The notes under the pieces are model-generated. The model worked only from the letters and a program-made list of their open reading frames with translations, was not told the DNA's origin and did not search any database. Position numbers and translations under genes: made by a program. 64,000 nucleotides of DNA from Candidatus Heimdallarchaeum aukensis (GTDB taxonomy: Archaea; Asgardarchaeota; Heimdallarchaeia; Heimdallarchaeales; Heimdallarchaeaceae): NCBI GenBank assembly GCA_021513695.1, contig CP084166.1:416001-480000 (forward strand), given 5' to 3'. Shown piece by piece: positions 15,395 to 48,505 of the stretch. The number at the start of each line of letters is the position of its first letter. Position 1 is the first letter of the stretch.

Positions 15395-18067
15395 TTAATA
15401 TTTCTTTCCACAGATATCAATTTCTTCAAAAGTTTCCTTAACTTTATTTTTCTTTTGTTTTGTTCTGAAGATAATTTCAAATAAAACAATTGAAAAAATG
15501 AAAATCATCCAAACTATACTTTTACTGATAATTTCTTTTCTTCTAGTAATACCTATGTTTGAATTAGGATCTAATGGGTCAAAATCATTCATTACTTCTT
15601 CATAATCAGTATATGAATCTCCATCTGTATCAGGATCGTTGGGATCAGTATTATAAAATTTTACTTCTTCAAAATCGTCCAATCCATCAAAGTCACTATC
15701 TATGCGTAAAGGATTAGTATGGTAAATAAATAATTCTTCATAATCATCTAGTAAGTCACCATCTGTATCACGATTTAGGGGACTAGTATTGTAATTATTT
15801 ACTTCTTCTCCGTCTTTTAATCCATCATTATCAGAATCACTATCATTGGGGTCAGTATCGTACATGTAAATTTCAAGATTATCAGACAAACCATCCAAAT
15901 CTGAATCTTTTAATGTAGGATTTGTTCCATAAACAAATACTTCTACTCCATCATCTATTCCATCATTATCTGAATCATCATTTGTAGGATCTGTTCCATA
16001 AGCGTATATTTCATCACCATCTAATAATCCATCAAAGTCAGTATCATTATTCCTTGGATCAGTATTGTTTTCAAATTCGTGAATATTATATAATTCATCA
16101 TTATCAAAGTCAACATAGGCATCAATTGGATTAGCAACATCTAAACCATAGTAATATTCCCAGTAATTTGTCATTCCATCGCTGTCTAAATCTCCATCAG
16201 CATCGCTTGGATCATCAGGATCTAATCCTACACTAACTTCCCAGTAATCAGGCATTTTATCGTTATCACTATCTCTTACTAGTTTTATGATAAAAGCATC
16301 AATATATCCTTCCAAAGTGGAATTTAAAGGGCTTTTTAAAAGAAGATCATTACTCTCTGTACTCCCTACTATGTAGATAGAACCATCACTATCCACTGCT
16401 ATATCTCTACCTACATCTTCTTCTCTTCCACCAAAATATGTGCTAAAAACTAAATTTGTTCCACTTCTGTTTAACATAGAAACAAAAATATCGGAATAAT
16501 AAGTAGGATTTCTTTCTTCAATTGCATTTTTAATCGGAAAATCATTGCTCCATGTTCCACCTGTTAAATAGACGTTTTGATCATTATCTACCGTTATTGA
16601 CAAACAAGTATCATTTGATGAACCACCTAAAAATGTACTATAGATTATATTATCAGCTGTTGAACTTATTTTTGTTAAAAATATGTTAGAATATCCATTT
16701 AGTGTGTCATCAAAGGCATTTTTTGTTGGAAAGTCAGTACTATTTGTAACACCAGTGATATATACATAACCTTCACTATCAATAGTTATTCCTCTGGCAT
16801 AATCATTATACTTTCCCCCTAAATAAGTGCTAAAGATTAACCCATTTCCTGTAGAGTTAATATAGGATAAATAAACATCAAAAAAGCTTCCACCACCATA
16901 AGTAGAATTAAAAGCATTTACAGTCGGAAAATCATCACTTCTTGTAGATCCAGTAATGAAAATAGAACCATTAGAGAAAACTTTACCTTTAGCAAAGTAT
17001 TCAGCATCACTTCCCCCTATTATTGTGGTGAAAATAGGTTCAAGAGTTTCTCCATCAAGTTTAGTAACAAAAGCATCATAATCATCATCTGAAATATTTC
17101 CAAAAGCAAAGTTGTTGAATAAAGAAGTGCTCATAGTATCTCCAAAAATGTATATATTTCCATCATTTCCTATTTCTATCTTGCGTCCATAATCAAAAAT
17201 ATCCCCGCTTAAATAAGAACTAAAATCTACTAAATAAGGATCAATAATCAATTTTTTAGCTGTATCATATTGTTCAATATTAAAAATATAACAGTTGTCA
17301 TCAAGAGTAAAATAAGCGGGGATAATTTTTCCTTCTTAAAAAACTTTTAAGTTTCTATCATTAAAAATTCTATATTCTGTATTTCCGATTCTTGAGATTC
17401 CAACTATATTAGTTTCATCTTCTTGTTTTAAGTAAAACTTTGAATCTGATGATAGTTGAACCTTAATAACTGAAGGATCAGCGTTTGGTTCAACAATAAA
17501 TTCGTATTTCAGAAATGAACCTGTAAAATAGTATCTTAAAGATATTCCGGGGTATATATCTTCATATATTATTTCTTGATAACAGCTTATTTGAGTAATT
17601 GCTTTATCTTTGTAAAAAAAGTTAGAATAGTAATTTGCTAATGCTTTTGCCTGTGGTACAACGATATTTGAATCAGGAAAAGAGACATTAATTAAGAAAA
17701 ATTTAGTATTTTCTTCTTTATTCGGTTTAAGATTCTGAATAAAGTAGACCTTAGATTCTCCAAAGTAAACATTTGTTAAAGGAGATTGAGCATAATAAAA
17801 AACTGTCTTGTCAAATATATGCCCTTTATTTTTCATAAAAAAGTATTTAGAATTGTAATCACTGACATAGTTCTCTTCAATTTCGCCGGAAACACTGTAA
17901 AAATTAATTTTTGCTTTATTTTGCTGTTGTGAATATTTTATGCTGTAAGAGCCAACTAAAGTGTTATTTTTGACATAAAATCCAGATAAACTGCTCACAC
18001 TTACAAGAAAGATTAAAAACAAACAAACAATAAATGAAACATTTCCTTTGCTTTGATTTTCATTCAT
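15395..18067 (-). pseudogene. Surface protein gene (signal peptide, N-terminal domain, SBBP-type beta-propeller repeats, TSP3-like Ca-binding repeats, TM anchor) interrupted by one in-frame TAA at 17336-17338
   Basis: The ORFs 17336..18067 and 15395..17251 are in the same frame, as (17335-17251) is 84 nt, or 28 codons. I translated the gap by hand as ...NLKVF*EGKIIPAYFTLDDNCYIFNIEQYDTAKKLIIDPYLV, which is open apart from the single TAA. The downstream part has only a TTG pseudo-start and no signal peptide, while the upstream part carries the signal peptide (VSFIVCLFLIFLVSVSSLSG). SBBP-like repeats are present (YLGGKYNDYARGITIDSEGYVYITGVTNSTDFPTKNAF). So are TSP3-like repeats (DSDNDGIDDGVE, DTDGDLLDDYEE). 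Confidence 0.6.
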
Positions 18068-23063: not shown

Positions 23064-25118
23064 TTGAACAGAGCAAAAAAAATAGTACCTTTAGCTATAA
23101 TATTTGTTCAAATAATTCTTTTTACTAGCTTACAGTATAGTTCCGTCAATGCAGATGAGATTCAGTATAACGTAATTGGAATAAACATCAATTCCGATAG
23201 TGATTTTATTGATTTTGCAAGGACAGGAGCAGGAACTAAAGAAGATCCCTACATAATTTCAGGGTATCACTTTGAGTACTATGAAATTGGGATATTTATT
23301 TCACAAACAAGTAAATATGTCATAATAACTAACTGTTCTTTTTCTAACATCAAATATGAAGCAATAAGATTGTGGTCTGTCAAATCTGGAACAGTAAGAA
23401 TAGAAAACAATACGATTGTTAATGCAAAAGTGGGAATATTCCTATATGAAGCTCCAGATTGTACAATAATAAGTAATAAAATAATGAACTGTTCTGCTTT
23501 TGCAATTAAAGATGATTTTTCTAGAATAGGATCAAAAATTATGAACAATACACTTTATAACAACGAAGAAGGAATAACCATAAGTGAAACTAATTACACT
23601 CAAATACTGAATAATTACATAATTTACAGTAGAAATGTTGGCATTTATTTAATGGATACCACAAATGGAACAGAAATACATCATAACTTCTTCTTAAATG
23701 CTAACAAACCTGCTTTTACAACAGCTTGTAGTTATGGATATTATAATAATTGGACATCAAATTATTGGAGTGATTGGGATGGTTCAAGTCCATATAAAAT
23801 AGAGAGTAAATATGAACAAACTTTTGACACAAATCCTTTAAGTTTCGATGACTCTGATGGAGACAAAATAATCGATATTTTAGAACTTGTTATGGATATG
23901 AATCCAGAATCAACCGACAACGACTCTGATGAAATTTCAGATTATGATGAATTACTTATTTATGCAACAAACCCTAATACAATAGATACAGATGAAGATG
24001 GAATAACAGATTATGATGAAATATTTGTATATTTAACAAATCCGAATACACAAGATACAGATAAAGATGGAATAACAGATTATGATGAAGTATTTGTATA
24101 TCATACAGATCCGAATAAAAAAGACTCAGATGGTGATACCTTTTCAGATTATGAAGAAATATTACAGAAAACCAATCCTAGGAAAAGTTATAGTAATCCA
24201 ATTACAAAAAAATATTTGACAATCTTTCTTCCAATTTTTTCAGGTTTATTTGGTGTTGCATTTCTTTCAACTAGATATTACTCTAACTCAAAGAAAAACA
24301 AAATTAAGGTAATCTTTGACACATGGAATGAATTTTTCAATGAATGGGAAAAAATAATTGAACAGATAAATAAATCAGGAAATTCAGAAATAGAAGAAAT
24401 AATCTTTGAGGTAAATCAGTTAAAAGAAAAAAAAGTAGATGAGCTTGAATTTGTCAAAAAAATAGTAGCTCAATCAAAGAAACTACTTATAGAACATATG
24501 AAATTCAACGTTGAATTAAGTTTACAAAAATACAAAAAGCAAATAGAAATTTTTGTTAACCTACAGAGTAATTTGATTGATAAAGCTTTAATTACCCTTA
24601 ATCAAATAACAGAAAATACAATTCTTAATGCTGTAAAAGATTATTTGTGGATGAGATTCGTTTATTTGTATAGTACTACTAGCAAATCAGAAGCAATTAC
24701 CACTATTGAAGATGTGAGTGGAGATGCACTTTTTAACAAGTTCATTAAATTTTATAGATCTTTAGATTATGAGGAAAGACTGAAAAAAGAAATATCCAAC
24801 TTAGCAGAAGAAGTAAAATTTCAGATAAATCAAGCAAAAAAATATGAAATTGAGCTTATAGAAAGTTCAATAAACTCTATTATTGATTCTCTATTTGATA
24901 AATTTAATAAACTTGAGATCGATATAAATATTCTTCAAGAAAAAATCAAGGATATAAACATCGCTCAGATTAAACTAGATAATCCTTCCGAAACTTTTGT
25001 TAGAATCGAAAATATAGTAAAAGAAGAAGTGAACATACAAATGAAAGATAAAGAAGAGTCTATTCAGTCTAATCTTTTCTCTAATCAAGAAAAAGGGTTA
25101 AAGAATCCGCGTGAATAG
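23064..25118 (+). CDS. Type I membrane protein: right-handed beta-helix (NosD/PbH1-like) ectodomain, TSP3-like Ca-binding repeats, TM, about 290-aa cytoplasmic coiled-coil tail (paralog 1)
   Basis: 684 aa. Signal-like N-terminus. Parallel beta-helix repeats are present (IENNTIVNAKVGIFLY, IISNKIMNCSAFAI, LNNYIIYSRNVGIYL). TSP3-like repeats follow (DTDEDGITDYDE, DTDKDGITDYDE, DSDGDTFSDYEE). The TM segment is LTIFLPIFSGLFGVAFL. The tail is K/E-rich. Confidence 0.7.
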   Translation: MNRAKKIVPLAIIFVQIILFTSLQYSSVNADEIQYNVIGININSDSDFIDFARTGAGTKEDPYIISGYHFEYYEIGIFISQTSKYVIITNCSFSNIKYEAIRLWSVKSGTVRIENNTIVNAKVGIFLYEAPDCTIISNKIMNCSAFAIKDDFSRIGSKIMNNTLYNNEEGITISETNYTQILNNYIIYSRNVGIYLMDTTNGTEIHHNFFLNANKPAFTTACSYGYYNNWTSNYWSDWDGSSPYKIESKYEQTFDTNPLSFDDSDGDKIIDILELVMDMNPESTDNDSDEISDYDELLIYATNPNTIDTDEDGITDYDEIFVYLTNPNTQDTDKDGITDYDEVFVYHTDPNKKDSDGDTFSDYEEILQKTNPRKSYSNPITKKYLTIFLPIFSGLFGVAFLSTRYYSNSKKNKIKVIFDTWNEFFNEWEKIIEQINKSGNSEIEEIIFEVNQLKEKKVDELEFVKKIVAQSKKLLIEHMKFNVELSLQKYKKQIEIFVNLQSNLIDKALITLNQITENTILNAVKDYLWMRFVYLYSTTSKSEAITTIEDVSGDALFNKFIKFYRSLDYEERLKKEISNLAEEVKFQINQAKKYEIELIESSINSIIDSLFDKFNKLEIDINILQEKIKDINIAQIKLDNPSETFVRIENIVKEEVNIQMKDKEESIQSNLFSNQEKGLKNPRE

Positions 25119-25302: not shown

Positions 25303-27288
25303 TTGAAAATAAAAAAGTCAAAATCTAATCTGTTAGTTTTGTTTTTAATATTGTTCTTTACTAGTTCTACCTATTTTCATATAAAAGCAGATGATAATAC
25401 AAAATCAGGTTTTGCAATTCAAATCTCTTCTAACGATGAATTTTCTTTATTTTCAAAAGCAGGTAACGGAACTAAAGAAAATCCCTATGTTATCTCAGGA
25501 TATATCATTGAACACTTCGAAGCAGGTATTTTTATATCTCAAACAACCAAATTTTTCGTTATTACTAATTGTACTTTTCTTAATCTAAAATATGAAGCCA
25601 TACGAATAATGACAGTAGATGTTGGTAATGTTAGAATAGAAAATAATACGATTATTAATACAAAGTTTGGAATTTATATATATCAAGCTCCAAAAAGTAT
25701 TATTGTAAATAACAAAATCGTTAATTGCACTGTATCAGGAATAAGAGACGAATTTTCAGGAATAGGTTCTAAAATTGAAAACAACACTCTTTACAACAAT
25801 GAAGAAGCTATTACAATTTATTCAACAAATTATACTCAAATATTAAATAATTATATAATCAAAAGTCGGAAAGCTGGCATATTTCTATTGTGGAAACCAA
25901 ATGGAACAGAAATACATTATAACTTTATTCTAAACTCAGTAAAACCTTATATTGCAACTGCTCACAACGAAGGATTCAATAATAATTGGACATCAAATTA
26001 TTGGAATGACTGGAATGGAACAGGAGATTATCAAATAAGTAGCATTTATGAAACAACATTTGATAAAAATCCTTTGAGTTTTAATGACACTGATGGAGAT
26101 AAAATAATTGATATTTTGGAACTTGTAATGAATACAGATCCTTATGTGGTAGATAGCGACAATGACGGAATTGATGACTATAATGAATTGCTTAATTATG
26201 CAACAAACCCTAATGCCCAAGACAGTGATGGAGATGGAATATCTGATTATGACGAAATAATTGTATATACAACAAATCCCAATGCACAAGACACTGATGG
26301 AGATGGAATAACAGATTATGATGAAGTATTTGTTTATGGAACTGATGCAAAGAAACGAGATACTGATGGCGATACTTTTTCTGATTATGAAGAAATATTA
26401 ATGAAAACTAACCCTAAAAAAAGTTACAGTAATCCTATTATTAGAAGATATCTAACCATCTTAATTCCTACTTTTTCAGGAGTACTTGTTATTGCAGCTT
26501 TTTCAACTAGATACTATACCAACTCAAGGAGAAACAAAATTAAGGTGATTTTTGAAACATGGAATGAATTTTTCACTGAGTGGGAGAAAATAATTGAGCA
26601 GATAAACAATACAAAAAATTCAGAAGTTGAAGAAATAATATTTGAGGTAAAGGAACTTAAAAATAAGAAAATTGACGAACTTGAGCTTGTAAAGAAAATA
26701 ATCAGTCAAGCTAAAAAATTACTTATCAATCATATGAAGTTCAATGTTGAATTAAGCTTACAAAGATATAAAAAGCAAGCTGAAATTGTAATTAATCTAC
26801 AGAATAACTTAATTAGCCAAGCATTAACTGCTCTTAATCAAATAACAAAGAATACAATACTAAACGCTGTAAAAGATTACTTGTGGATGAGATTTGTTTA
26901 TCTATATAGCACAACAGAAAAATCTGAAGCCATAACTACTATTGAAGATATAAGTGGAGACACTCTTTTTAACAAGTTTGTCAAATTTTACAAATCATTA
27001 GATTATGAAGAGAGATTGAAAGAAGAAGTTGCTCATTTGGCAGAAGAAATCAAATATCAAATAAGAAAAGCCAAAGATTATGAAATTGATCTTTTAGAGA
27101 GTTCAATAAATTCAATTATAGACTCTTTACTTGATAAGTTTAACAAGCTTGAAGTTGATATTAATTTTCTTGAAGAAAAAATAAAAGACATTAGTGTTGA
27201 ACAGTCCAAGATCGATAATCCAAAAGATGCCTTCTTAAAAATAGAAAAAATAGTTAAAGAAGAAGTGAAAGAACAAAAAAGCAATTAA
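25303..27288 (+). CDS. Type I membrane protein: beta-helix ectodomain, TSP3-like repeats, TM, cytoplasmic coiled-coil tail (paralog 2)
   Basis: 661 aa and collinear with the 684-aa neighbour. Long identical stretches include DKIIDILELVM, NAVKDYLWMRFVYLYSTT and SINSIIDSL. Confidence 0.7.
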   Translation: MKIKKSKSNLLVLFLILFFTSSTYFHIKADDNTKSGFAIQISSNDEFSLFSKAGNGTKENPYVISGYIIEHFEAGIFISQTTKFFVITNCTFLNLKYEAIRIMTVDVGNVRIENNTIINTKFGIYIYQAPKSIIVNNKIVNCTVSGIRDEFSGIGSKIENNTLYNNEEAITIYSTNYTQILNNYIIKSRKAGIFLLWKPNGTEIHYNFILNSVKPYIATAHNEGFNNNWTSNYWNDWNGTGDYQISSIYETTFDKNPLSFNDTDGDKIIDILELVMNTDPYVVDSDNDGIDDYNELLNYATNPNAQDSDGDGISDYDEIIVYTTNPNAQDTDGDGITDYDEVFVYGTDAKKRDTDGDTFSDYEEILMKTNPKKSYSNPIIRRYLTILIPTFSGVLVIAAFSTRYYTNSRRNKIKVIFETWNEFFTEWEKIIEQINNTKNSEVEEIIFEVKELKNKKIDELELVKKIISQAKKLLINHMKFNVELSLQRYKKQAEIVINLQNNLISQALTALNQITKNTILNAVKDYLWMRFVYLYSTTEKSEAITTIEDISGDTLFNKFVKFYKSLDYEERLKEEVAHLAEEIKYQIRKAKDYEIDLLESSINSIIDSLLDKFNKLEVDINFLEEKIKDISVEQSKIDNPKDAFLKIEKIVKEEVKEQKSN

Positions 27289-29702: not shown

Positions 29703-30755
29703 ATGATGAGTAAACAAAAAAACAAAAAAACAAATAACACAGAAGTATACAAGAAAATTTTTCAGACGGCTCAAGATTCAATTTTTTTGCTTAATAAGAA
29801 TAATGTCTTTATAGATTGCAATCCTTATACTTGTGATATGTTTAATTGTGAGAAAGAAGATATTATTGGAACAACCCCAGTTGAATGGTCTCCTGAACTA
29901 CAGTTTGATGAAGTTCCTTCAGAAAAAAAGGCTAAACAATATATAAACAAAGCCTTTTCTGGAACACCTCAACGCTTTGAGTGGATTCACAAAAAAAAGA
30001 CAGGAGAATTATTTTATTGCGAAGTTTCTCTTAATAAGGTTGTAATAGATGGAGAAGATTTTTTACAAGCAATAGTACGTGAGATAACAGAAAAAAAATT
30101 TATTGAAGAAGTTGATTTAATATTCTCAAAAATAATTGACCATGATACCAGAAATATAGCCTTTGCAACTACTTCATACATCAATCTAATTCGAAATAAC
30201 TTTGAAGTAAATGAAAAACTAGATAATTATCTTAAAAGAATAGAAGATAATTTAGAAGAATTAATGAGTATTATAAATAAATTTTCAATTTTACATGAAG
30301 TCATGTATGAAACAAAAAAGCAAGTAATAAACCTTTATGAGACTGTTTGCAAAAGCATTCAACTTTTTGAAGAGAAATTAGGAGAAAAAAAAGTTGTAGT
30401 TGAAAACAAGATTAACAAAAATCACAAAGTAATTGCGGGGAATTTATTGATTGAAGTAATTAACAATTTAATAAGTAATTCCCTTCGGCACGCAAATGCT
30501 AATAAAGTTTTAATAAAAAGCAAAGAAACTCCAGAAAAAATAATTCTTGTTTTTGCAGATGATGGAAAAGGTTTTGACGAAAATTTATTACCTAATTTAT
30601 TTAAAGAAGGAATAAAAGGTCGTGATTCAAAAGGATCTGGTCTCGGTTTATATATTTCTAAAAAAATAATTAATTTATATGAAGGACATATTTCAGCAAG
30701 AAATGCAAGTAAAGGCGGAGCTGAATTTATTATTGAATTAGAAAAAGCAGATTGA
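29703..30755 (+). CDS. PAS-domain sensor histidine kinase (cytoplasmic)
   Basis: 350 aa. The N-terminus is PAS-like (IFQTAQDSIFLLNKNNVFIDCNPYTCDMFNC...). An H-box-like IDHDTRNIA is present. The HATPase_c motifs are N-box NLISNSLRHA, G1 DDGKGF and G2 GSGLGLYISKKI. Confidence 0.8.
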   Translation: MMSKQKNKKTNNTEVYKKIFQTAQDSIFLLNKNNVFIDCNPYTCDMFNCEKEDIIGTTPVEWSPELQFDEVPSEKKAKQYINKAFSGTPQRFEWIHKKKTGELFYCEVSLNKVVIDGEDFLQAIVREITEKKFIEEVDLIFSKIIDHDTRNIAFATTSYINLIRNNFEVNEKLDNYLKRIEDNLEELMSIINKFSILHEVMYETKKQVINLYETVCKSIQLFEEKLGEKKVVVENKINKNHKVIAGNLLIEVINNLISNSLRHANANKVLIKSKETPEKIILVFADDGKGFDENLLPNLFKEGIKGRDSKGSGLGLYISKKIINLYEGHISARNASKGGAEFIIELEKAD

Positions 30756-32804: not shown

Positions 32805-33068
32805 ATGGAGTCTTTAAAGAGATTATATTTTACAACAATAGTAGGAACAGAACATAAACAAATACCATTTGAAACACCAGGAAGTATAGTTTTCCACGAA
32901 TTAATTGTAGAAGTTTCAAAAAAGTTTGGAATAGCTACTGAACAAATTGCGATAAGCAGTGAAATGGGAGAAACTCTAACAGTTTCAGATTTTCAATCCA
33001 CTGTGGACGAAATAATAAGAAAGTATGGAACAGCTTTTCAAGTTATTAATCGAGGAGTAGTAGGATAA
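32805..33068 (+). CDS. UFM1-like beta-grasp ubiquitin-like modifier ending in Val-Gly
   Basis: 87 aa. The C-terminus KYGTAFQVINRGVVG-stop parallels remembered mature human UFM1 KHGSELRIIPRDRVG. The middle segment EVSKKFGIATEQIAISSEMG parallels UFM1 FAAEEFKVPAATSAIITNDG. It sits between the JAMM and E2 genes. Confidence 0.7.
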   Translation: MESLKRLYFTTIVGTEHKQIPFETPGSIVFHELIVEVSKKFGIATEQIAISSEMGETLTVSDFQSTVDEIIRKYGTAFQVINRGVVG

Positions 33069-33079
33069 AGATTTTAGAG

Positions 33080-33661
33080 ATGGGGGTTCCAAAGATTAGC
33101 GACAGCGATACTTCAACAGTAAAAGGAAGATGGAGAGAAACACCTGCAGAAAGAGAACTAGTTAAGTTTCCAGAAGCTCTGATAAATATAACTCCAAAGC
33201 ATCCTAAATGGACAGAAAGAGTGAAAATAGAAATTTTAAATCTAGCAAAATATGTTCAGTTTTTACAAAGAAAAGGCGGGCATAGCTGGTTCTTTCTTAC
33301 ACCTAGTAAAGATCCTAAGTACAACTTTATGAAATGGGAAGGATATTTGCAAGTGGCTACAAGACCAGAAATTAGGTTTAAAATAGTAATTCTTTTACCT
33401 GGAAACTATCCAAAATCTTGCCCTAGGGCTTTCATTGAAGAAAGAGTAGTAGAATTTGCAGGAAAGATTTATACCAAAAATGTCTGGGAAGAGCCAAATG
33501 GAGAAAAATATTTGATGATATGTCATGACCACATGAGTGAAATTGACGATATTTGGGATCCAAGGTTAACAATTGCACACTTTTTCATAAGAGAAGTATT
33601 CTATTGGTGGGCAGCTCAACAGAACCTAATAATTGAACATTACGACAAAGGAAAGAAATAG
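33080..33661 (+). CDS. UFC1-like E2 conjugating enzyme
   Basis: 193 aa starting 11 nt after the Ubl stop. KWTERVKIEILNLAKYVQF parallels UFC1 LWVQRLKEEYQSLIRYVEN. LPGNYPKSCP parallels IPITYPTTAP. FAGKIY parallels KTAKMY. LMICHDHMSEIDDIW (Cys148) parallels the UFC1 active site KICLTDHFKPLW. LTIAHF parallels GLAHL. There is no canonical E2 HPN motif, as in UFC1. Confidence 0.7.
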   Translation: MGVPKISDSDTSTVKGRWRETPAERELVKFPEALINITPKHPKWTERVKIEILNLAKYVQFLQRKGGHSWFFLTPSKDPKYNFMKWEGYLQVATRPEIRFKIVILLPGNYPKSCPRAFIEERVVEFAGKIYTKNVWEEPNGEKYLMICHDHMSEIDDIWDPRLTIAHFFIREVFYWWAAQQNLIIEHYDKGKK

Positions 33662-33836: not shown

Positions 33837-34874
33837 TTGATGAGTAACAATTTAATATTGAATTTTTTAAATTTTCCACCAAATGTTGATTCTTTTACAG
33901 ATTATGAAAGTAAAATTCATAACGAAATTGAAAATCAATTCAATGATACACGTTCATTACTTCTTGTAATCATGAAGAGTTTGGATGTGGAAGACAAAAA
34001 ACGTTTTTTCAAAATTAAGAAATTTCTTGACAAATTAATTAGTGAGTTCAATTCCTTAAAAACTAGAATTTTTTCATTTGAGACAATTGAAGGAAAATTA
34101 TCTTTCAATCATGAAGTTGTTTTAATTTTAGATTTCTTAATTTTTGAACGTTTATTAGACTTCAATACTACTTTAAGAAATATAGAATCGATAGTTCTAC
34201 ATACTTTGGATAAAGATTACATTCAAGCTCAATCTTTTCAACTTCACAAATCTCTACAAAAACTAGAAAATTTAATTAATTTCCGTAAAGTAGCACATCA
34301 ACTTACTCCATCTGATCAATTGTTTCTGCAATTCTCAGAAGATTTCAGTGCTCAACTCTCTTATCTTGAATCAGTAGGCGTAATTCACCAGTTTGATGAA
34401 CTAAGTAAACCTTCTTTATTGGGAAAGAAAGCATATTATGACAAACTTTCTCAATTGTTTATCTCAACTTGCAATTCTCTACAAAAACAAAATAGATTAA
34501 ACATACCTTTTCTTGAATTTGTAGATGTTTTTCAAAAGAGATATCCAAATGTTGAGTTTGCTGTAGAAGATTTGGACAAAATTGCTTCAAGACTTTCAAA
34601 GACTGGGATGATTTCTGTAGTTACTAATACAGAGCAATCAAAGAAAATTATTATTGGCGAAGACATTGCTTTACAGCAAGAAATACTCAAATTAGCCAAA
34701 GGAAAAGGATACATTACACAAGAAGAATTGATTAGTTCTTTAGGTAAAAGTATAACGGAGATACAATTAACTATCAAGAAACTTGAAGATGCAGGACTAG
34801 CTATCGAAGACGATGACTATGCTTCAGGAAAGAGGATCTATTTTCCAGGTTTAGAAACAGAAATAAAAAGTTAG
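33837..34874 (+). CDS. Tandem winged-helix protein, EAP30 (Vps22/Vps36, ESCRT-II)-like, with DDRGK-type WH as an alternative
   Basis: 345 aa; the likely ATG is at 33840. The C-terminus ISVVTNTEQSKKIIIGEDIALQQEILKLAKGKGYITQEELISSLGKSITEIQLTIKKLEDAGLAIEDDDYASGKRIYFPGL aligns by eye with remembered human SNF8/Vps22 ...LIQSVPAELNMDHTVVLQLAEKNGYVTVSEIKASLKWETERARQVLEHLLKEGLAWLDLQAPGEAHYWLPAL. It also resembles the DDRGK1 WH (LEDLA...LLAEGTITGVIDDRGKFIYIT). A helical N-terminal half precedes it. Confidence 0.5.
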   Translation: MMSNNLILNFLNFPPNVDSFTDYESKIHNEIENQFNDTRSLLLVIMKSLDVEDKKRFFKIKKFLDKLISEFNSLKTRIFSFETIEGKLSFNHEVVLILDFLIFERLLDFNTTLRNIESIVLHTLDKDYIQAQSFQLHKSLQKLENLINFRKVAHQLTPSDQLFLQFSEDFSAQLSYLESVGVIHQFDELSKPSLLGKKAYYDKLSQLFISTCNSLQKQNRLNIPFLEFVDVFQKRYPNVEFAVEDLDKIASRLSKTGMISVVTNTEQSKKIIIGEDIALQQEILKLAKGKGYITQEELISSLGKSITEIQLTIKKLEDAGLAIEDDDYASGKRIYFPGLETEIKS

Positions 34875-34883
34875 GGTGAAAAA

Positions 34884-35531
34884 ATGTCATATATTGTAAA
34901 ATTGGGATTAGATGAAAAACAAGAAAATAATGTAACTAAAAGTGAACTTTCAGATGAACTTGTTGCATGGGTTTTTCCCTACGCTTTAGAAAAATGGGAA
35001 AAAATTAATTTAAAGAAAAGAAGGCAAATTTTGGTTAAACTCAATGAAAAAGCTCTCGTTTATAACAAAGAAAACTTCATTCAAGAGCTTTCAAGTGGCT
35101 TATACAAAGTTAATAGAAAAGAAGGTCTTGAAGATCACAAAATTGTTTTCTTAGAAAAAAACCTTATTACTCTTAAATGGGGCATCACTCAAATGCAAGG
35201 AGTTTTAACAAGTGACAATATAAAAGTTGGAGCTTCTGGAACAGTTTCTCTAACTTTATCAGGTGCAGAAGTATTTGTTTTAAACGTTCTGAAAAATAAA
35301 ACAAGTTTTTCAAAGAAAGAACTCCGCCCCATAATAAATAATATCGTCAAAAGTGCATTAAGAGAAGTTTTTCCACAGTATTCTATTGAAGAATTACAAA
35401 AATTAAGTAAAGACGAATTACTTATGTTCTTTGAACCAATAATTGTAGAAGAATTGCAAAAAATAGGTTTTAGTAGCCAAGATATATCATTGGGTGCATT
35501 GGGAATTCCTCCGGAGTATAGGATTTTCTAA
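34884..35531 (+). CDS. SPFH/Band-7-like (YdjI-type) domain protein (tentative)
   Basis: 215 aa starting 9 nt after the previous stop. ITLKWGITQ...ASGTVSLTLSG...FSKKELRPIINNIVKSALREVF...GFSSQDISLGALGIPPE follows the pattern I recall for the Band_7_1 family (e.g. B. subtilis YdjI: FTVRWGTKQ...ANGTFKFKV...GFQIMSFNYPQE). Confidence 0.35.
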   Translation: MSYIVKLGLDEKQENNVTKSELSDELVAWVFPYALEKWEKINLKKRRQILVKLNEKALVYNKENFIQELSSGLYKVNRKEGLEDHKIVFLEKNLITLKWGITQMQGVLTSDNIKVGASGTVSLTLSGAEVFVLNVLKNKTSFSKKELRPIINNIVKSALREVFPQYSIEELQKLSKDELLMFFEPIIVEELQKIGFSSQDISLGALGIPPEYRIF

Positions 35532-35647: not shown

Positions 35648-36514
35648 TTGAAAAAATATTCTTGTTTCATGTCATTAGAATACAGTTGTATACTTCCACA
35701 TGGTTTTAATCTTATACCAGATCTTAATCCAGAACAAGATGAAAAATCAGCTAAACTCGCTTTAGAAATTTCTTCTATTGCTGAACAAATAGTTAACAAA
35801 GACCCTGAAGTAATAATTATTGCGTCTCCTCATAATCTGCGAATAAGCGAAAATATAGGCATTGTTACTACAGAATGGTTGAAGGGCTCTTATATAGAAA
35901 AAGATACAGAAAAAAGTGCAGAAATGGAATGGAAGTGTGACAGAAAACATGCTTCTAAACTCTACATTAGGGCAAAAAATGAAGGTTTACCTGTAGTTGC
36001 TGTTAATTTTGGAACAAGTGAGGGCCCATTATCGAGTATACCTTTAGATTGGGGAACATTTATTCCTCTTTACTTCATCAAAAAAGCTTACGAGAAAAGT
36101 AAGAAAACAATTCCTCAGGTAGTTCTAATCACCCCTAGCAGAGACATAGATTGGAAGCATTTAGTGAAATTAGGAGAGTTAATATATCTATTGAGCATTG
36201 AGGAAAATAAGAAAACAGTTTTCATAGCAAGTGCTGATCAAGCTCATGCACATGATGCAAATGGTCCTTACGGATTTGATCCTGCAGCAAAAAGTTTTGA
36301 CGACTTGATTTGCAAAATGATTACTTCAAACTCGTTAAATGATTTATTAGGAATAGATCAAGGATTAATTGAACACTCAAAACCAGATAGTCTGTGGCAG
36401 ATACTTATTCTTGCAGGAATAGCTGTTAAAGCAAACATGGTCAACAAGTCTTGTGTCTATGAGTGTCCAACTTACTATGGAATGATTGCTGCCTCATTTG
36501 AAAGAAAAATATAA
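35648..36514 (+). CDS. Class III extradiol dioxygenase subunit B (LigB)-like protein (tentative)
   Basis: 288 aa; the real start is possibly the ATG at 35669. His-containing motifs CILPHG, IIIASPHNL and ASADQAHAHD resemble the LigB/DODA family metal ligands. Confidence 0.4.
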   Translation: MKKYSCFMSLEYSCILPHGFNLIPDLNPEQDEKSAKLALEISSIAEQIVNKDPEVIIIASPHNLRISENIGIVTTEWLKGSYIEKDTEKSAEMEWKCDRKHASKLYIRAKNEGLPVVAVNFGTSEGPLSSIPLDWGTFIPLYFIKKAYEKSKKTIPQVVLITPSRDIDWKHLVKLGELIYLLSIEENKKTVFIASADQAHAHDANGPYGFDPAAKSFDDLICKMITSNSLNDLLGIDQGLIEHSKPDSLWQILILAGIAVKANMVNKSCVYECPTYYGMIAASFERKI

Positions 36515-36545
36515 AAAAAACTGCTCGTTCATTGAATAGAATATT

Positions 36546-37571
36546 ATGCACAACAAAGAAAAAAGAAAACAATTATTCCTTTTTATTTTTGCCTTAATAA
36601 TCAGCATAACACTCGCAATAGTGCTTACTCTAGTAGAAAAACAAGTTTCAGTTCCTAAAATGATTATTTTTGGTTTTTCCTCTTTTTTAAATATCATAAC
36701 AATTTGTATCTTTACTTTTCCTTACATTAACAAAATAGTTATAGAGTATCTAAAAGGAAGAAAAATATACTATCTTTTCTTATTAGTAGTAATTATCAAT
36801 CCATTGTTAAATTGGATATTTATTGATTCACTAAATGGATTTATAGTTGCTTTTCTATCTTATTTAGCTTGGATAGCTTTACCTGTTATAGCTTTTATGC
36901 AAGCATATGTAATTGATAAAATCAAGTTTAAATCATTACTACTTGTGGCAGGAATATTAATTTTAGCATATGGTTTTGATTCAAGACTTATGTATTCTGT
37001 TCTTTCCGGTTTTGATGAAGGAAAATACAGTTTTAGCTCATTATGGGTAAGCGCAATAATTCTTACAATATACTCTATTCAGTTAGAAAAAGCAGAAATA
37101 AGATTAAGGTGGACACTAAATTTAAAGAAGCTAATATTATCTCTCGGTTCTTTAGTCGTATTGTTTGCTGTTATAGTTCCTTTAGGCTTATATACTGAAT
37201 TTCTAGTCTGGTCTCCTGATTGGCCAGGATTTGCATTATTTATCCTTGCATTTATAGGTATATGGTTTACAATTGCTCTTCCAGAAGAACTAATAGCTCG
37301 CTCAATAATCCAATATCAATTATCAGAGAAAACTGTTCCTAAAAGTAGTAAATATTACAAATATCACAAATGGATTATATTGGTAGTAGCGTCCTTTATC
37401 TTCGGATTAAGTCACCACAACAACACAAGTGCAGAATTCGCTTGGATTTACATAGGCTTTGCTACTTTTGCAGGAATTTTATATGGTATATGTTGGAGAT
37501 ATGGTAATTTAGCTACAGCAATGTTAACACATACTCTAGTAGACTGGATTTGGCAACTGTTATTTAGATAG
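36546..37571 (+). CDS. CPBP (CAAX protease / bacteriocin-processing) family intramembrane metalloprotease
   Basis: 341 aa and polytopic. It has the three CPBP motifs: EELIARS (EExxxR), FGLSHHNN (FxxxH) and HTLVDW (HxxxD). Confidence 0.7.
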   Translation: MHNKEKRKQLFLFIFALIISITLAIVLTLVEKQVSVPKMIIFGFSSFLNIITICIFTFPYINKIVIEYLKGRKIYYLFLLVVIINPLLNWIFIDSLNGFIVAFLSYLAWIALPVIAFMQAYVIDKIKFKSLLLVAGILILAYGFDSRLMYSVLSGFDEGKYSFSSLWVSAIILTIYSIQLEKAEIRLRWTLNLKKLILSLGSLVVLFAVIVPLGLYTEFLVWSPDWPGFALFILAFIGIWFTIALPEELIARSIIQYQLSEKTVPKSSKYYKYHKWIILVVASFIFGLSHHNNTSAEFAWIYIGFATFAGILYGICWRYGNLATAMLTHTLVDWIWQLLFR

Positions 37572-45535: not shown

Positions 45536-48505
45536 ATGAAAATAAAATCCATGAAATATAAAAAATATTTTTTCTTTGTACTTTTCACGGTCTTAGTTGT
45601 ATTCGCTTATCCACGAAGCTTTTACAACGAAGTTGAAGCAGGATATACACAAACAACTCCTATCAACATATATTCTGATTCAGACTTAGAAAGTTATTCA
45701 TTTCCTGGTACAGGAACTGAAGCTGACCCTTATATTATAGAAAATTATAACATCACAGTTACTAGTGGTTATGCTATTTCAATTAGAGCAACAACAAAAT
45801 ATGTCATTATAAGAAATAACTATATTATAGGGTCTGATACTGGCAATGGAATGTACATTTTTAGTGTTGCACCAAACACTGTTCATATAATAAATAACAC
45901 CGTTGTCAATGCTTATACTGGAATTTATGTAAATACTGAAGGACAAATGATAATAGAGAATAATACTGTAACAGGAGGAGAGTCTGCCTATTATTTCTCT
46001 TCAACTGGAAATATTAATTTTACTAACAATAAGGCAATCAATCCTAAAAAATATGGTTTAAGAGCTTATAATTTAAATAACTTCAGAATGGCTAATAGTA
46101 CTTTAATAGGCGCTGGAGTAGGTTTTTCTACAAGTAGTACATCCTTTTATGATAATTACTATTTTGATAACAATTCAATTAATAACAAGCCTTTGATGGT
46201 AGTTTATTCTTCATCAGATCTTGTTTTTGACAAAAATCAAAATGGTCAGATATTAATTATAGACAGCACGAACATCACAGTCAAAAATTATGTCTCAAGC
46301 GAAAATACTTTTGGAGTTTATTCCTACTATTCTGATAAAATAACAATAGAGGATAGTTTTTTTTCAAAAGCAGTTTCTTCAATTAAAGCAGAATATTCTT
46401 CAAATATTGAAATAAAGAATGTAAAAATTAGTAACACATACGAGTATGGAATGAATATTCGCAATATAGATGGAATTTCGATTGAAGATACTATAGTTGA
46501 AGATTCTAATAAAGGGATATATGCAAGAGGAATAAATAATTTAGAAATAACAAATACTACTTCCACTAATCATGAAAATGATGGCTTGTACCTGTGGTAT
46601 GTAAATAATGCAAATATTTCTAGTTCGTTTTTCGCAAATTGTAAGAACGGATTAGTTGCAAGAAGTTCAACTAACATAAGATTAGAAGAAAACTCAGCTT
46701 CAAACTGTAGTTATACAAGTTTTACTCTAATTTATCTTGAGAATGTAACAGTAAAAGATAACTTAATGGAATCTGGGATAAAACTTAACCATTACAACGT
46801 TGAATGGAGCTACGAATTCAGTAATAATACAATAAAAGGAAAACCTTTAGGTGTTTTTTATAATAAAACAGGGTTAACTATTGACTCAACTTATTCGCAA
46901 TTAATACTAGTAAATTGTACAGACTTTATAATCAATAATGCGTATTTTTCTCAAGTAGTAAGAGGAATTTACATTCTTTACGGAGAAAATATTTCTATAA
47001 ATAATATCTCGATGTACAACGTCTTTGAAGGTGGACTATTAGTAGAGTATTCCAAGAAAATAAGCATTCAAGATTTAAATGTAAATGGAGTAATAGGTAA
47101 TGAAGCTTATGGTATTTACACTTATAATGTAACTTCGGTGTTTCTTAATCATTCTATTTTTACACTGTGCGGAGATTATCCTTTTTATGGAGAAGAGATT
47201 GCAGATGCTATAATTTCTTATAATATATTTAATAATAGCACTAATAATGTGTTTTACATTTACAATGGCTTTAATCTTTCTATTTTTGGAAATGATTTTT
47301 TGTTTAATGATTATGCACTTTATGTTGAATTTTCAAACGAAATAGAATTCTACAACCTTGAATTAGAAATGGGAAATTGTTACTCTGAATGGAACGGTTC
47401 AACTAGATATCCTATTGAAACAGATAGTGGCTACATTTATGATGAATTTCCATTAAATGATACTGACAGAGATAAGCTTAACGACAGTTTAGAAGTGTAT
47501 AGTTACAATACTGACCCATTTCTTGCAGATACAGATTACGATATACTCAGTGATTATGACGAAATAATGAACTATGGAACTGACCCAAACTCGGTAGATT
47601 CAGATAATGATAATATGCCAGACAAATGGGAAATAGAAAATAATCTTAACCCAATCGAAGATGACTCCTCAGAAGATCCTGACGATGATGATTTGTCTAA
47701 CATAGAAGAATATAATTCACACACCAATCCCAATTCTGCTGATACAGATTCTGATGGTATGCCTGATGGTTGGGAAGTGGAAAATGAATTAAATCCTTTG
47801 ATAGATGATGCTGATGAAGACCCAGATAATGATGATCTAACTAATTTAGAAGAATACTCTAATAATACTGACCCTAACTCTGCAGATACAGATTCTGACG
47901 GTATGCCTGACAAATGGGAGGTAGATAATAATCTTGACCCAACTAAAGATGATGCTGATGAAGACCCAGATAATGATGATCTAACTAATTTAGAAGAATA
48001 CACTAACAACACAGACCCTAACACCAATGACACAGATGGTGATGGTATGTTTGATGGTTGGGAAGTAGATAATAGTCTTGATCCTCTAACTGATGATGCT
48101 GATGAAGATCCTGATAATGATGGACTAACAAATCTAGAAGAACATACAAACAATACTAACCCAAATGATGAAGATACGGATTCAGATGGTATGCCTGATG
48201 GATGGGAAGTGGAAAATGGATTAAATCCTCTGATAGATGATGCTGAGGAAGACCCAGATAATGATAGATTAACTAACATACAAGAATACTTGAATAACAC
48301 AGATCCCAACAATCCAGATACTGATGGAGATGGATATTCAGACTCTGAAGAAATAGAGAAAGGCTCTAACCCTACCGATGCTACAGATAAACCTCTTAAT
48401 TTGGGATTGATTCTTGGTTTATCCATTGGTATTCCAACTGTTCTTATTGCAGTCTTCTTATTTATAATGAAGAAAAAAGGTTTACTCTTCTTTAAGAAGA
48501 AGTAA
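45536..48505 (+). CDS. Large surface protein: extended right-handed beta-helix, five MPDxWE/TSP3-like Ca-binding modules, C-terminal TM anchor
   Basis: 989 aa. It has a signal-like N-terminus and many PbH1-type repeats (IINNTVVNAYTGIYV, IENNTVTGGESAYYF, ...). Five 48-aa modules follow (DTDSDGMPDGWEVENELNPLIDDADEDPDNDDLTNLEEY). The C-terminal TM is LILGLSIGIPTVLIAVFLFIM, followed by KKK. Confidence 0.75.
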   Translation: MKIKSMKYKKYFFFVLFTVLVVFAYPRSFYNEVEAGYTQTTPINIYSDSDLESYSFPGTGTEADPYIIENYNITVTSGYAISIRATTKYVIIRNNYIIGSDTGNGMYIFSVAPNTVHIINNTVVNAYTGIYVNTEGQMIIENNTVTGGESAYYFSSTGNINFTNNKAINPKKYGLRAYNLNNFRMANSTLIGAGVGFSTSSTSFYDNYYFDNNSINNKPLMVVYSSSDLVFDKNQNGQILIIDSTNITVKNYVSSENTFGVYSYYSDKITIEDSFFSKAVSSIKAEYSSNIEIKNVKISNTYEYGMNIRNIDGISIEDTIVEDSNKGIYARGINNLEITNTTSTNHENDGLYLWYVNNANISSSFFANCKNGLVARSSTNIRLEENSASNCSYTSFTLIYLENVTVKDNLMESGIKLNHYNVEWSYEFSNNTIKGKPLGVFYNKTGLTIDSTYSQLILVNCTDFIINNAYFSQVVRGIYILYGENISINNISMYNVFEGGLLVEYSKKISIQDLNVNGVIGNEAYGIYTYNVTSVFLNHSIFTLCGDYPFYGEEIADAIISYNIFNNSTNNVFYIYNGFNLSIFGNDFLFNDYALYVEFSNEIEFYNLELEMGNCYSEWNGSTRYPIETDSGYIYDEFPLNDTDRDKLNDSLEVYSYNTDPFLADTDYDILSDYDEIMNYGTDPNSVDSDNDNMPDKWEIENNLNPIEDDSSEDPDDDDLSNIEEYNSHTNPNSADTDSDGMPDGWEVENELNPLIDDADEDPDNDDLTNLEEYSNNTDPNSADTDSDGMPDKWEVDNNLDPTKDDADEDPDNDDLTNLEEYTNNTDPNTNDTDGDGMFDGWEVDNSLDPLTDDADEDPDNDGLTNLEEHTNNTNPNDEDTDSDGMPDGWEVENGLNPLIDDAEEDPDNDRLTNIQEYLNNTDPNNPDTDGDGYSDSEEIEKGSNPTDATDKPLNLGLILGLSIGIPTVLIAVFLFIMKKKGLLFFKKK
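47588..48307 (+). repeat. Five tandem 144-nt coding repeats (48-aa acidic Ca-binding modules)
   Basis: The period was measured from gatacagattctga at 47741 and 47885, a 144-nt offset. Five protein-level copies were read. The copies are diverged, not identical. Confidence 0.75.

Follow-up and report, generated by a model that had tools for sequence, protein, structure and literature searches.

The window analysed here, a 64-kb stretch with a G+C content of ~30%, carries a cluster of co-directional genes in the order E1–JAMM–Ubl–E2–EAP30/Vps22-like–SPFH (Table 1), in which Ubl is an 87-residue ubiquitin-fold modifier. The modifier ORF starts at an ATG preceded by GGGGA and closes with AAT CGA GGA GTA GTA GGA TAA (N R G V V G stop), and the E2 gene is the next one after it. 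The initial annotation of the locus had described an ORF terminating directly after NRGVVG with no C-terminal propeptide; our reading of the frame bears this out, with the stop codon following immediately on Gly87, the predicted conjugation end of the modifier.

Table 1. Features of the modifier cluster, in coordinates of the 64-kb window.
Feature	Position	Strand	Basis
PAS + HATPase sensor kinase, immediately upstream of E1	29703..30755	+	ORF; Pfam of the L001/L002 orthologue
UBA5-like E1, ThiF fold, 287 aa	30830..31693	+	Pfam ThiF 4.6e-51; best PDB match UBA5
JAMM/MPN+ metalloprotease, 352 aa	31707..32765	+	Pfam Prok-JAB + JAB; motif HSHPNKVYHSVTD
UFM1-like modifier, 87 aa, C-terminal NRGVVG	32805..33068	+	ORF, orthologues, AF2 fold, Foldseek, profile matches
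Stop signals of the modifier	33066..33077	+	TAA 33066-33068 directly after Gly87; in-frame TAG 33075-33077, three codons on
UFC1-like E2, 193 aa	33080..33661	+	Pfam UFC1; PDB matches; alignment with Asgard orthologues and human UFC1
EAP30/Vps22-like winged-helix protein (ESCRT-II type)	33837..34874	+	Pfam EAP30 2.8e-8, 34.2 bits vs 26.8
SPFH/Band 7 protein, last gene of the conserved cluster	34884..35531	+	Pfam Band_7 8.5e-12

A homologue search found the identical 87-aa hypothetical protein encoded on a 3.08 Mb contig of Candidatus Heimdallarchaeum aukensis, together with 12 more orthologues of 55–97% identity from independent NCBI, JGI, ENA and Logan assemblies. Since nine of these 13 proteins (that of the window included) stop exactly after the Gly, the modifier gene and its stop position are real and an assembly artefact is excluded.

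The order E1–JAMM–Ubl–E2–x–SPFH is the same in the window (no tail on the modifier) and at three other loci: L001 from the sister species H. endolithica (one-residue tail, +L), L013 (+WYE) and L011 (modifier joined in frame to the E2). For L011 and L013, the E1, JAMM, E2 and SPFH proteins are orthologues of the window proteins. Altogether, adjacent genes for the complete set of Ubl, E1, E2 and JAMM occur in the window, L001/L002, L003, L006, L011 and L013. At L009, Ubl, JAMM and ThiF genes are present and no E2 was identified. This last locus (L009:1108-3086, from GCA_038861095.1, labelled Candidatus Korarchaeota archaeon) has a tail-less UFM1-like gene followed by the JAMM and then the ThiF E1, and its JAMM is 38% identical to that of the window over 123 aa (E 4e-26); if the Korarchaeota label is correct, the family extends beyond the Asgard archaea.

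The slot of the EAP30/Vps22-like gene, whose product gave no sequence match in the PDB, is also occupied in L001, and in L001, L006, L011 and L013 the cluster likewise ends with a Band_7 gene. These two neighbours suggest that the modifier system may work at a membrane scaffold. The sensor kinase gene adjoins E1 in H. endolithica too, and whether it belongs to the operon is uncertain. Shortly after the end of the cluster, at 35648-37571, lie a LigB-family gene and a gene for an Rce1-like CPBP intramembrane protease, as they do in H. endolithica; the Rce1-like CPBP family processes protein C-termini in eukaryotes, and there is no evidence of a link to the modifier cluster. Elsewhere in the window, at 15395-17251 (−), 23064-25118 (+), 25303-27288 (+) and 45536-48505 (+), are large paralogous proteins, probably surface proteins: three combine a right-handed beta-helix/NosD region with bacterial TSP3 calcium-binding repeats, and one combines SBBP beta-propeller repeats with TSP3. 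Among the ORFs of at least 130 aa scanned between 14192 and 51202, no match to UFL1, DDRGK1, a RING E3 or a UfSP-type protease was found.

An AF2 model of the modifier, built on the 13 orthologues, adopts a beta-grasp fold (mean pLDDT 91, pTM 0.80). In a Foldseek search of the PDB with this model, ranks 1–13 are all UFM1 (TM 0.73–0.87, rmsd 1.3–2.6 Å), and ubiquitin chains rank below them at a TM of ~0.70. At the sequence level, detecting the relationship to UFM1 needed deeper profiles: a PDB search with the single 87-aa sequence returned chance matches only, and hhalign of the 13-sequence profile, which is too shallow, against single UFM1 or ubiquitin sequences gave probabilities of 5–13%. 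With a 33-sequence family profile, the top 12 hmmsearch matches in the PDB are all UFM1 chains (E~0.003), and Gly87, the final column of the profile, is aligned with UFM1 Gly83. The same deep profile aligns by hhalign with 14 metazoan UFM1 sequences at 95% probability (E 4e-8) over 63 columns up to the terminal VG, and with three ubiquitins at 87% over the N-terminal 47 columns only. The Val-Gly of the modifier thus stands in register with Val82-Gly83 of eukaryotic UFM1, at the end of a C-terminal block common to the modifier family and UFM1, K-[YH]-G-x-x-[FL]-x-[IV]-I-x-R-x-x-V-G.

The curated Pfam threshold, however, does not place the modifier in UFM1 proper at the sequence level: it scores 13.7 bits against the Ufm1 model (PF03671; cut-off 27; E=0.061), a model that matches 2 of 33 family members at E<1. 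With fold, profile, C-terminal register and partner enzymes in agreement and the Pfam threshold missed, we regard the UFM1 reading as well supported. The claim of the initial annotation that a single Gly after Val is a hallmark of UFM1 rather than of ubiquitin or SAMPs is upheld by the register, the fold, the UBA5-like E1 and the UFC1-like E2. We also considered whether the modifier is the “Heimdall ubiquitin” of Hatano et al., since the orthologue P0009 has Val45, and rejected this identity: HeimAB125_14240 is a Gly-Gly ubiquitin.

The partner enzymes are recognized as a UBA5-type E1 and a UFC1-type E2 by their sequences and by gene adjacency. The E1 matches UBA5 in the PDB at 2.4e-51, as against 8e-25 for MoeB, and its Cys193 (GEPCTASLPST) aligns with the Cys of UBA5 GVCAASLPTT. 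A comparison of the 26-aa C-terminal tail of the E1 with the UFM1- and UFC1-binding peptides of UBA5 found no match; the E1 sequence ...TVDELIQNL may resemble the UBA5 C-terminus. The E2 passes the Pfam UFC1 cut-off marginally (26.1 bits vs 25), and all 26 of its PDB matches are UFC1. Cys148, in a conserved MICHDH motif, is the candidate catalytic Cys and would correspond to UFC1 Cys116, judging from the common I-C-x(1-2)-D-H motif; the MAFFT alignment with human UFC1 mis-gaps the catalytic loop. In H. endolithica, the first ~82 codons of the E2 gene (L001:6268-6525, orthologous to window 33069-33325) are present at 91% DNA identity, the ATG is replaced by ATCG through a 1-nt insertion with an in-frame TAA just upstream, and the first canonical start, at 6526, gives a called protein of 111 aa; possible explanations for this 5′ end are a start codon of non-canonical type, an error in the sequence and an E2 truncated at its N-terminus.

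The Heimdall system resembles the eukaryotic UFM1 system as follows: the beta-grasp fold of the modifier is closest to UFM1; the single Gly follows Val in the same register; the E1 is UBA5-like, with a C[AT]ASLP[ST]T cysteine loop; and the E2 is UFC1-like. It differs in several respects: the modifier is only ~20% identical to eukaryotic UFM1, under the Pfam threshold; it has no propeptide, whereas UFM1 is a UfSP-trimmed precursor and the metazoan UFM1 sequences with a readable RVG end (~115) are all tailed, by 1 to about 18 aa, SC being the commonest tail; the protease that goes with it is a JAMM metalloenzyme in place of a UfSP cysteine protease; the genes are arranged as a prokaryotic operon, with no UFL1, DDRGK1 or CDK5RAP3 gene nearby; and the E1 is without the long C-terminal region of UBA5.

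The JAMM of the window retains the catalytic residues E28, H86, H88, S95 and D98. The motif H-x-H-x(6-8)-S-x-x-D is intact in the JAMM proteins of the window, L003, L006, L011 and L013; that of L001 was assigned from Pfam JAB matches. The best PDB match of the window JAMM is CsRpn11 (6fjv; 1.4e-5), and there is a weak NCBIfam desampylase match. The active-site spacing, HxHx6Sx2D, is one residue shorter than in CsRpn11. Orthologues are 293–403 aa long, and the C-terminal ~225 aa of the window protein (residues ~130–352) had no sequence match in Pfam, NCBIfam or the PDB. A JAMM gene stands beside a tail-less modifier in the window, L006 and L009 and beside a +KN form in L003; at the tail-less locus L010, no JAMM or E1 was found within 5 kb.

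CsRpn11 belongs to the ubiquitin operon of Caldiarchaeum subterraneum and cleaves both the precursor and the conjugates of its modifier CsUb (PMC6043591). That operon is like the present one in encoding an archaeal Ubl together with an E1, an E2 and a JAMM. It is unlike it in that CsUb is ubiquitin-like, with a Gly-Gly end and a 9-aa propeptide; the Caldiarchaeum operon includes a RING E3, of which no counterpart was found here; its E1 and E2 are ubiquitin-type enzymes rather than UBA5/UFC1-type ones; and CsRpn11 is specific for Gly-Gly, unlike the Val-Gly end here. We know of no JAMM for which cleavage after Val-Gly has been shown.

The haloarchaeal SAMPs (with UbaA and HvJAMM1) and the Asgard ubiquitins offer a second comparison. 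The SAMPs are encoded ending in Gly-Gly, and JAMM desampylases reverse SAMP conjugation. Like the present modifier, both groups are often encoded already mature: HeimAB125 ubiquitin, for example, ends in TKGG, whereas Odin ubiquitin continues past its Gly-Gly (TEGG-SVKY). They differ from it in their Gly-Gly termini and in belonging to another beta-grasp subfamily, and the SAMP systems work without an E2. Archaeal modifiers encoded in mature form are ordinary and common.

Among the 13 orthologues, [VI]-V-Gly is invariant, and four carry tails of 1–5 aa (+L, +T, +KN and +QKVLY). The +Leu form is that of H. endolithica, confirmed on two assemblies, where a modifier 97% identical to that of the window lies in the same operon. 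For the wider family we pooled the close orthologues with 42 relatives at E <=0.001 from an exhaustive HMMER scan of 1.84 billion cluster representatives; a second, word-indexed homologue search with the family alignment as query gave no new sequences. Gly occupies the terminal profile position in 41 family members: 19 end there, 14 have tails of 1–9 residues and 8 have long extensions. In all 41, the position before the aligned Gly holds V, A, L, T or D and in no case G. A further 13 relatives without the terminal Gly are ubiquitin-fold domains or fragments and, as their sequences indicate, non-conjugatable.

Whether the VG-stop end is conserved among homologues was the point on which the initial annotation had staked its reading, with Gly-Gly or extended ends counting against it. 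Val-Gly itself is conserved throughout the orthologues, most of which also stop there, and Gly-Gly is never the aligned terminus; tails or extensions, however, occur in 4/13 orthologues and in 22/41 Gly-bearing family members. The tail-less state is therefore a detail that varies between lineages and is not fixed, and the role of the JAMM does not follow from it.

Four of the eight long extensions (P0028, P0029, P0034 and P0049) are in-frame fusions of the modifier to a UFC1-like E2, and L011 keeps the order E1–JAMM–[Ubl-E2]–x–SPFH around its fusion. The linkers of such natural fusions, including L011:5001-5816 and L007:940-1764, are ~10–35 residues long. Other relatives have unusual architectures. 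P0026 (L008:3759-6383; 874 aa), another of the eight long extensions, consists of an N-terminal domain, a UFM1-like domain ending in HRVVG, a Hint/Vint-like domain (weak Pfam Vint match) whose Cys-Phe-Ser-Gly follows directly after the Gly, and LRR repeats; as read from this arrangement, a self-cleaving Hint after the reactive Gly could yield an E1-independent thioester. P0019 (285 aa) joins a TIR-like N-terminal domain to a UFM1-like domain ending in IVG-GSKI, and a TIR-LRR gene (L007:1890-2933) adjoins the Ubl-E2 fusion of L007; this TIR association points tentatively to a connection, in some lineages, with immune-type signalling modules. Each of the long proteins P0042, P0051, P0045 and P0035 contains between two and five UFM1-like domains without the terminal Gly, and they look like relatives of the modifier that cannot be conjugated. 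Acidic low-complexity regions and hydrophobic, possibly membrane, segments at the C-terminus also occur in P0042 and P0051.

From the sequence, fold, homology, operon conservation and tail distribution computed here, we infer every enzymatic step of the mechanism that we consider probable: an Asgard UFM1 homologue, its Val-Gly exposed at translation, would be conjugated by UBA5/UFC1-like enzymes and cleaved after Val-Gly by the JAMM, and its tail would be labile. In this scheme, the UBA5-like E1 would adenylate Gly87 and take the modifier as a thioester on Cys193; the E1 would then hand it to Cys148 of the UFC1-like E2; and the E2 would attach it to substrate lysines, no E3 gene having been found nearby. 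The initial annotation proposed mass spectrometry for a Val-Gly remnant on lysines, which needs correction where trypsin is used: with R83 as the final Arg, digestion would leave GVVG (+312.18 Da). The JAMM would cleave after Val-Gly, and in H. aukensis only deconjugation would be left to it, whereas in relatives with the same operon it would also remove tails of 1–9 residues or free the modifier from the E2 fusion. Whether a tail is present would be labile, shifting with the position of the stop codon, a tail being tolerated because the protease is present.

Two of these points bear on earlier claims about the locus. For the H. aukensis genome, which encodes no tail, it is correct that activation needs no processing protease. 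The further proposal, that the JAMM is a deconjugase rather than a maturase, stands in so far as only deconjugation is left in the window genome and falls short for the family, which keeps tails and fusions. Given that the JAMM is kept at loci where there is nothing to mature, it must have another role, for which deconjugation is the obvious candidate; given that tails and fusions persist in the same operon, a protease that cleaves after Val-Gly must be available, and the JAMM is the only conserved candidate for this cleavage that the gene neighbourhoods offer. The choice between deconjugase and maturase is a false one for the family, because tailed and fused forms share the operon and CsRpn11 does both. 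By analogy with CsRpn11, the JAMM most likely both matures and deconjugates across the family.

A purely deconjugating JAMM, with tails trimmed by another protease or carboxypeptidase or with the tailed and fused forms inactive, appears unlikely to us. Retention of the JAMM at the tail-less loci (window, L006 and L009) does show that maturation is not its sole role. However, tails and E2 fusions lie inside the very same E1–JAMM–Ubl–E2 operon (L001, L013 and L011), in which no other protease is conserved; the closest solved homologue of the JAMM performs both reactions; and without a maturase, strong selection would be expected against the tails that about half of the family carries.

It is still less probable, indeed improbable, that the modifier acts chiefly as a sulfur carrier, or as a non-covalent ubiquitin-fold adaptor, of the ThiS/MoaD/Urm1 kind, activated by a ThiF-type E1 and making no lysine-directed tag. 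The E1 has a ThiF fold and NCBIfam matches to ThiF, MoeB and SAMP E1, the 13 related proteins without a terminal Gly are clearly non-conjugatable, and archaeal SAMPs and Urm1 are each both tag and sulfur carrier, all of which would agree with such a role. Yet the E1 resembles UBA5 much more closely than it does MoeB or ThiF; its conserved neighbours include a Cys-bearing UFC1-like E2 and a JAMM isopeptidase, neither of which sulfur transfer requires; known sulfur carriers end in Gly-Gly; and no rhodanese, ThiG/H or MoaE gene was found near the modifier among the scanned ORFs. Finally, that the mature end stems from an error of annotation or sequencing, or that the stop is read through and a tail really made, is hardly credible: stop codons are reportedly recoded in some Asgard lineages (PMC9723677), and the long “tail” of P0016 (L012), on a contig with broken-looking neighbour genes, is probably a frameshift artefact, but nine independent assemblies share the stop position here, the TAA is backed by an in-frame TAG, and the source is a contig of 3.08 Mb.

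Asgard Ufm1 homologues have already been reported from nine clades by structure-based searches (Koestlbacher et al., bioRxiv 2024, Nat Microbiol 2026; PMC12962969); they are described there as restricted to Asgard lineages, with partial matches and multi-region or multi-domain matches. The multi-domain matches, as given there, agree with the fusions and repeats that we found, and the modifier family most likely corresponds to these published homologues. The main text of PMC12962969 makes no mention of glycine, JAMM, UFC1 or UBA5, and the text available to us does not describe the C-terminal states or the E1–JAMM–Ubl–E2 operon. Our literature search found no publication linking UFC1 to Asgard archaea. 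Because Asgard Ufm1 homologues are published and tail-less archaeal modifiers are ordinary, the tail-less end is a modest refinement. Its importance is mainly practical: the modifier would be usable for E1/E2 reconstitution without a processing step, and the tail-less form, the +Leu form of the sister species and a natural Ubl-E2 fusion make up a ready substrate set for JAMM function.

The whole operon is of more interest than the tail-less end itself. We tentatively suggest, as a possibility that falls somewhat short of an even chance, that the UBA5-like E1, the Val-Gly UFM1-like modifier and the UFC1-like E2 represent the whole catalytic core of UFMylation, pre-eukaryotic and originating in Asgard archaea, held in an operon and physically coupled to ESCRT-II-like Vps22 and SPFH proteins; that its JAMM was later replaced by UfSP cysteine proteases; and that the UFM1 propeptide is old, dispensable and freely gained and lost. 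If true, this would contradict earlier phylogenomics, in which UFM1, UFC1 and UfSP2 were eukaryote-only and UBA5 was bacterial in origin (PMC10183829). An operon of UBA5-, JAMM-, UFM1- and UFC1-like genes in Heimdallarchaeia, beside ESCRT-II-like and SPFH genes, thus bears on the origin of UFMylation and also on whether the first UFMylation protease was a metalloprotease.
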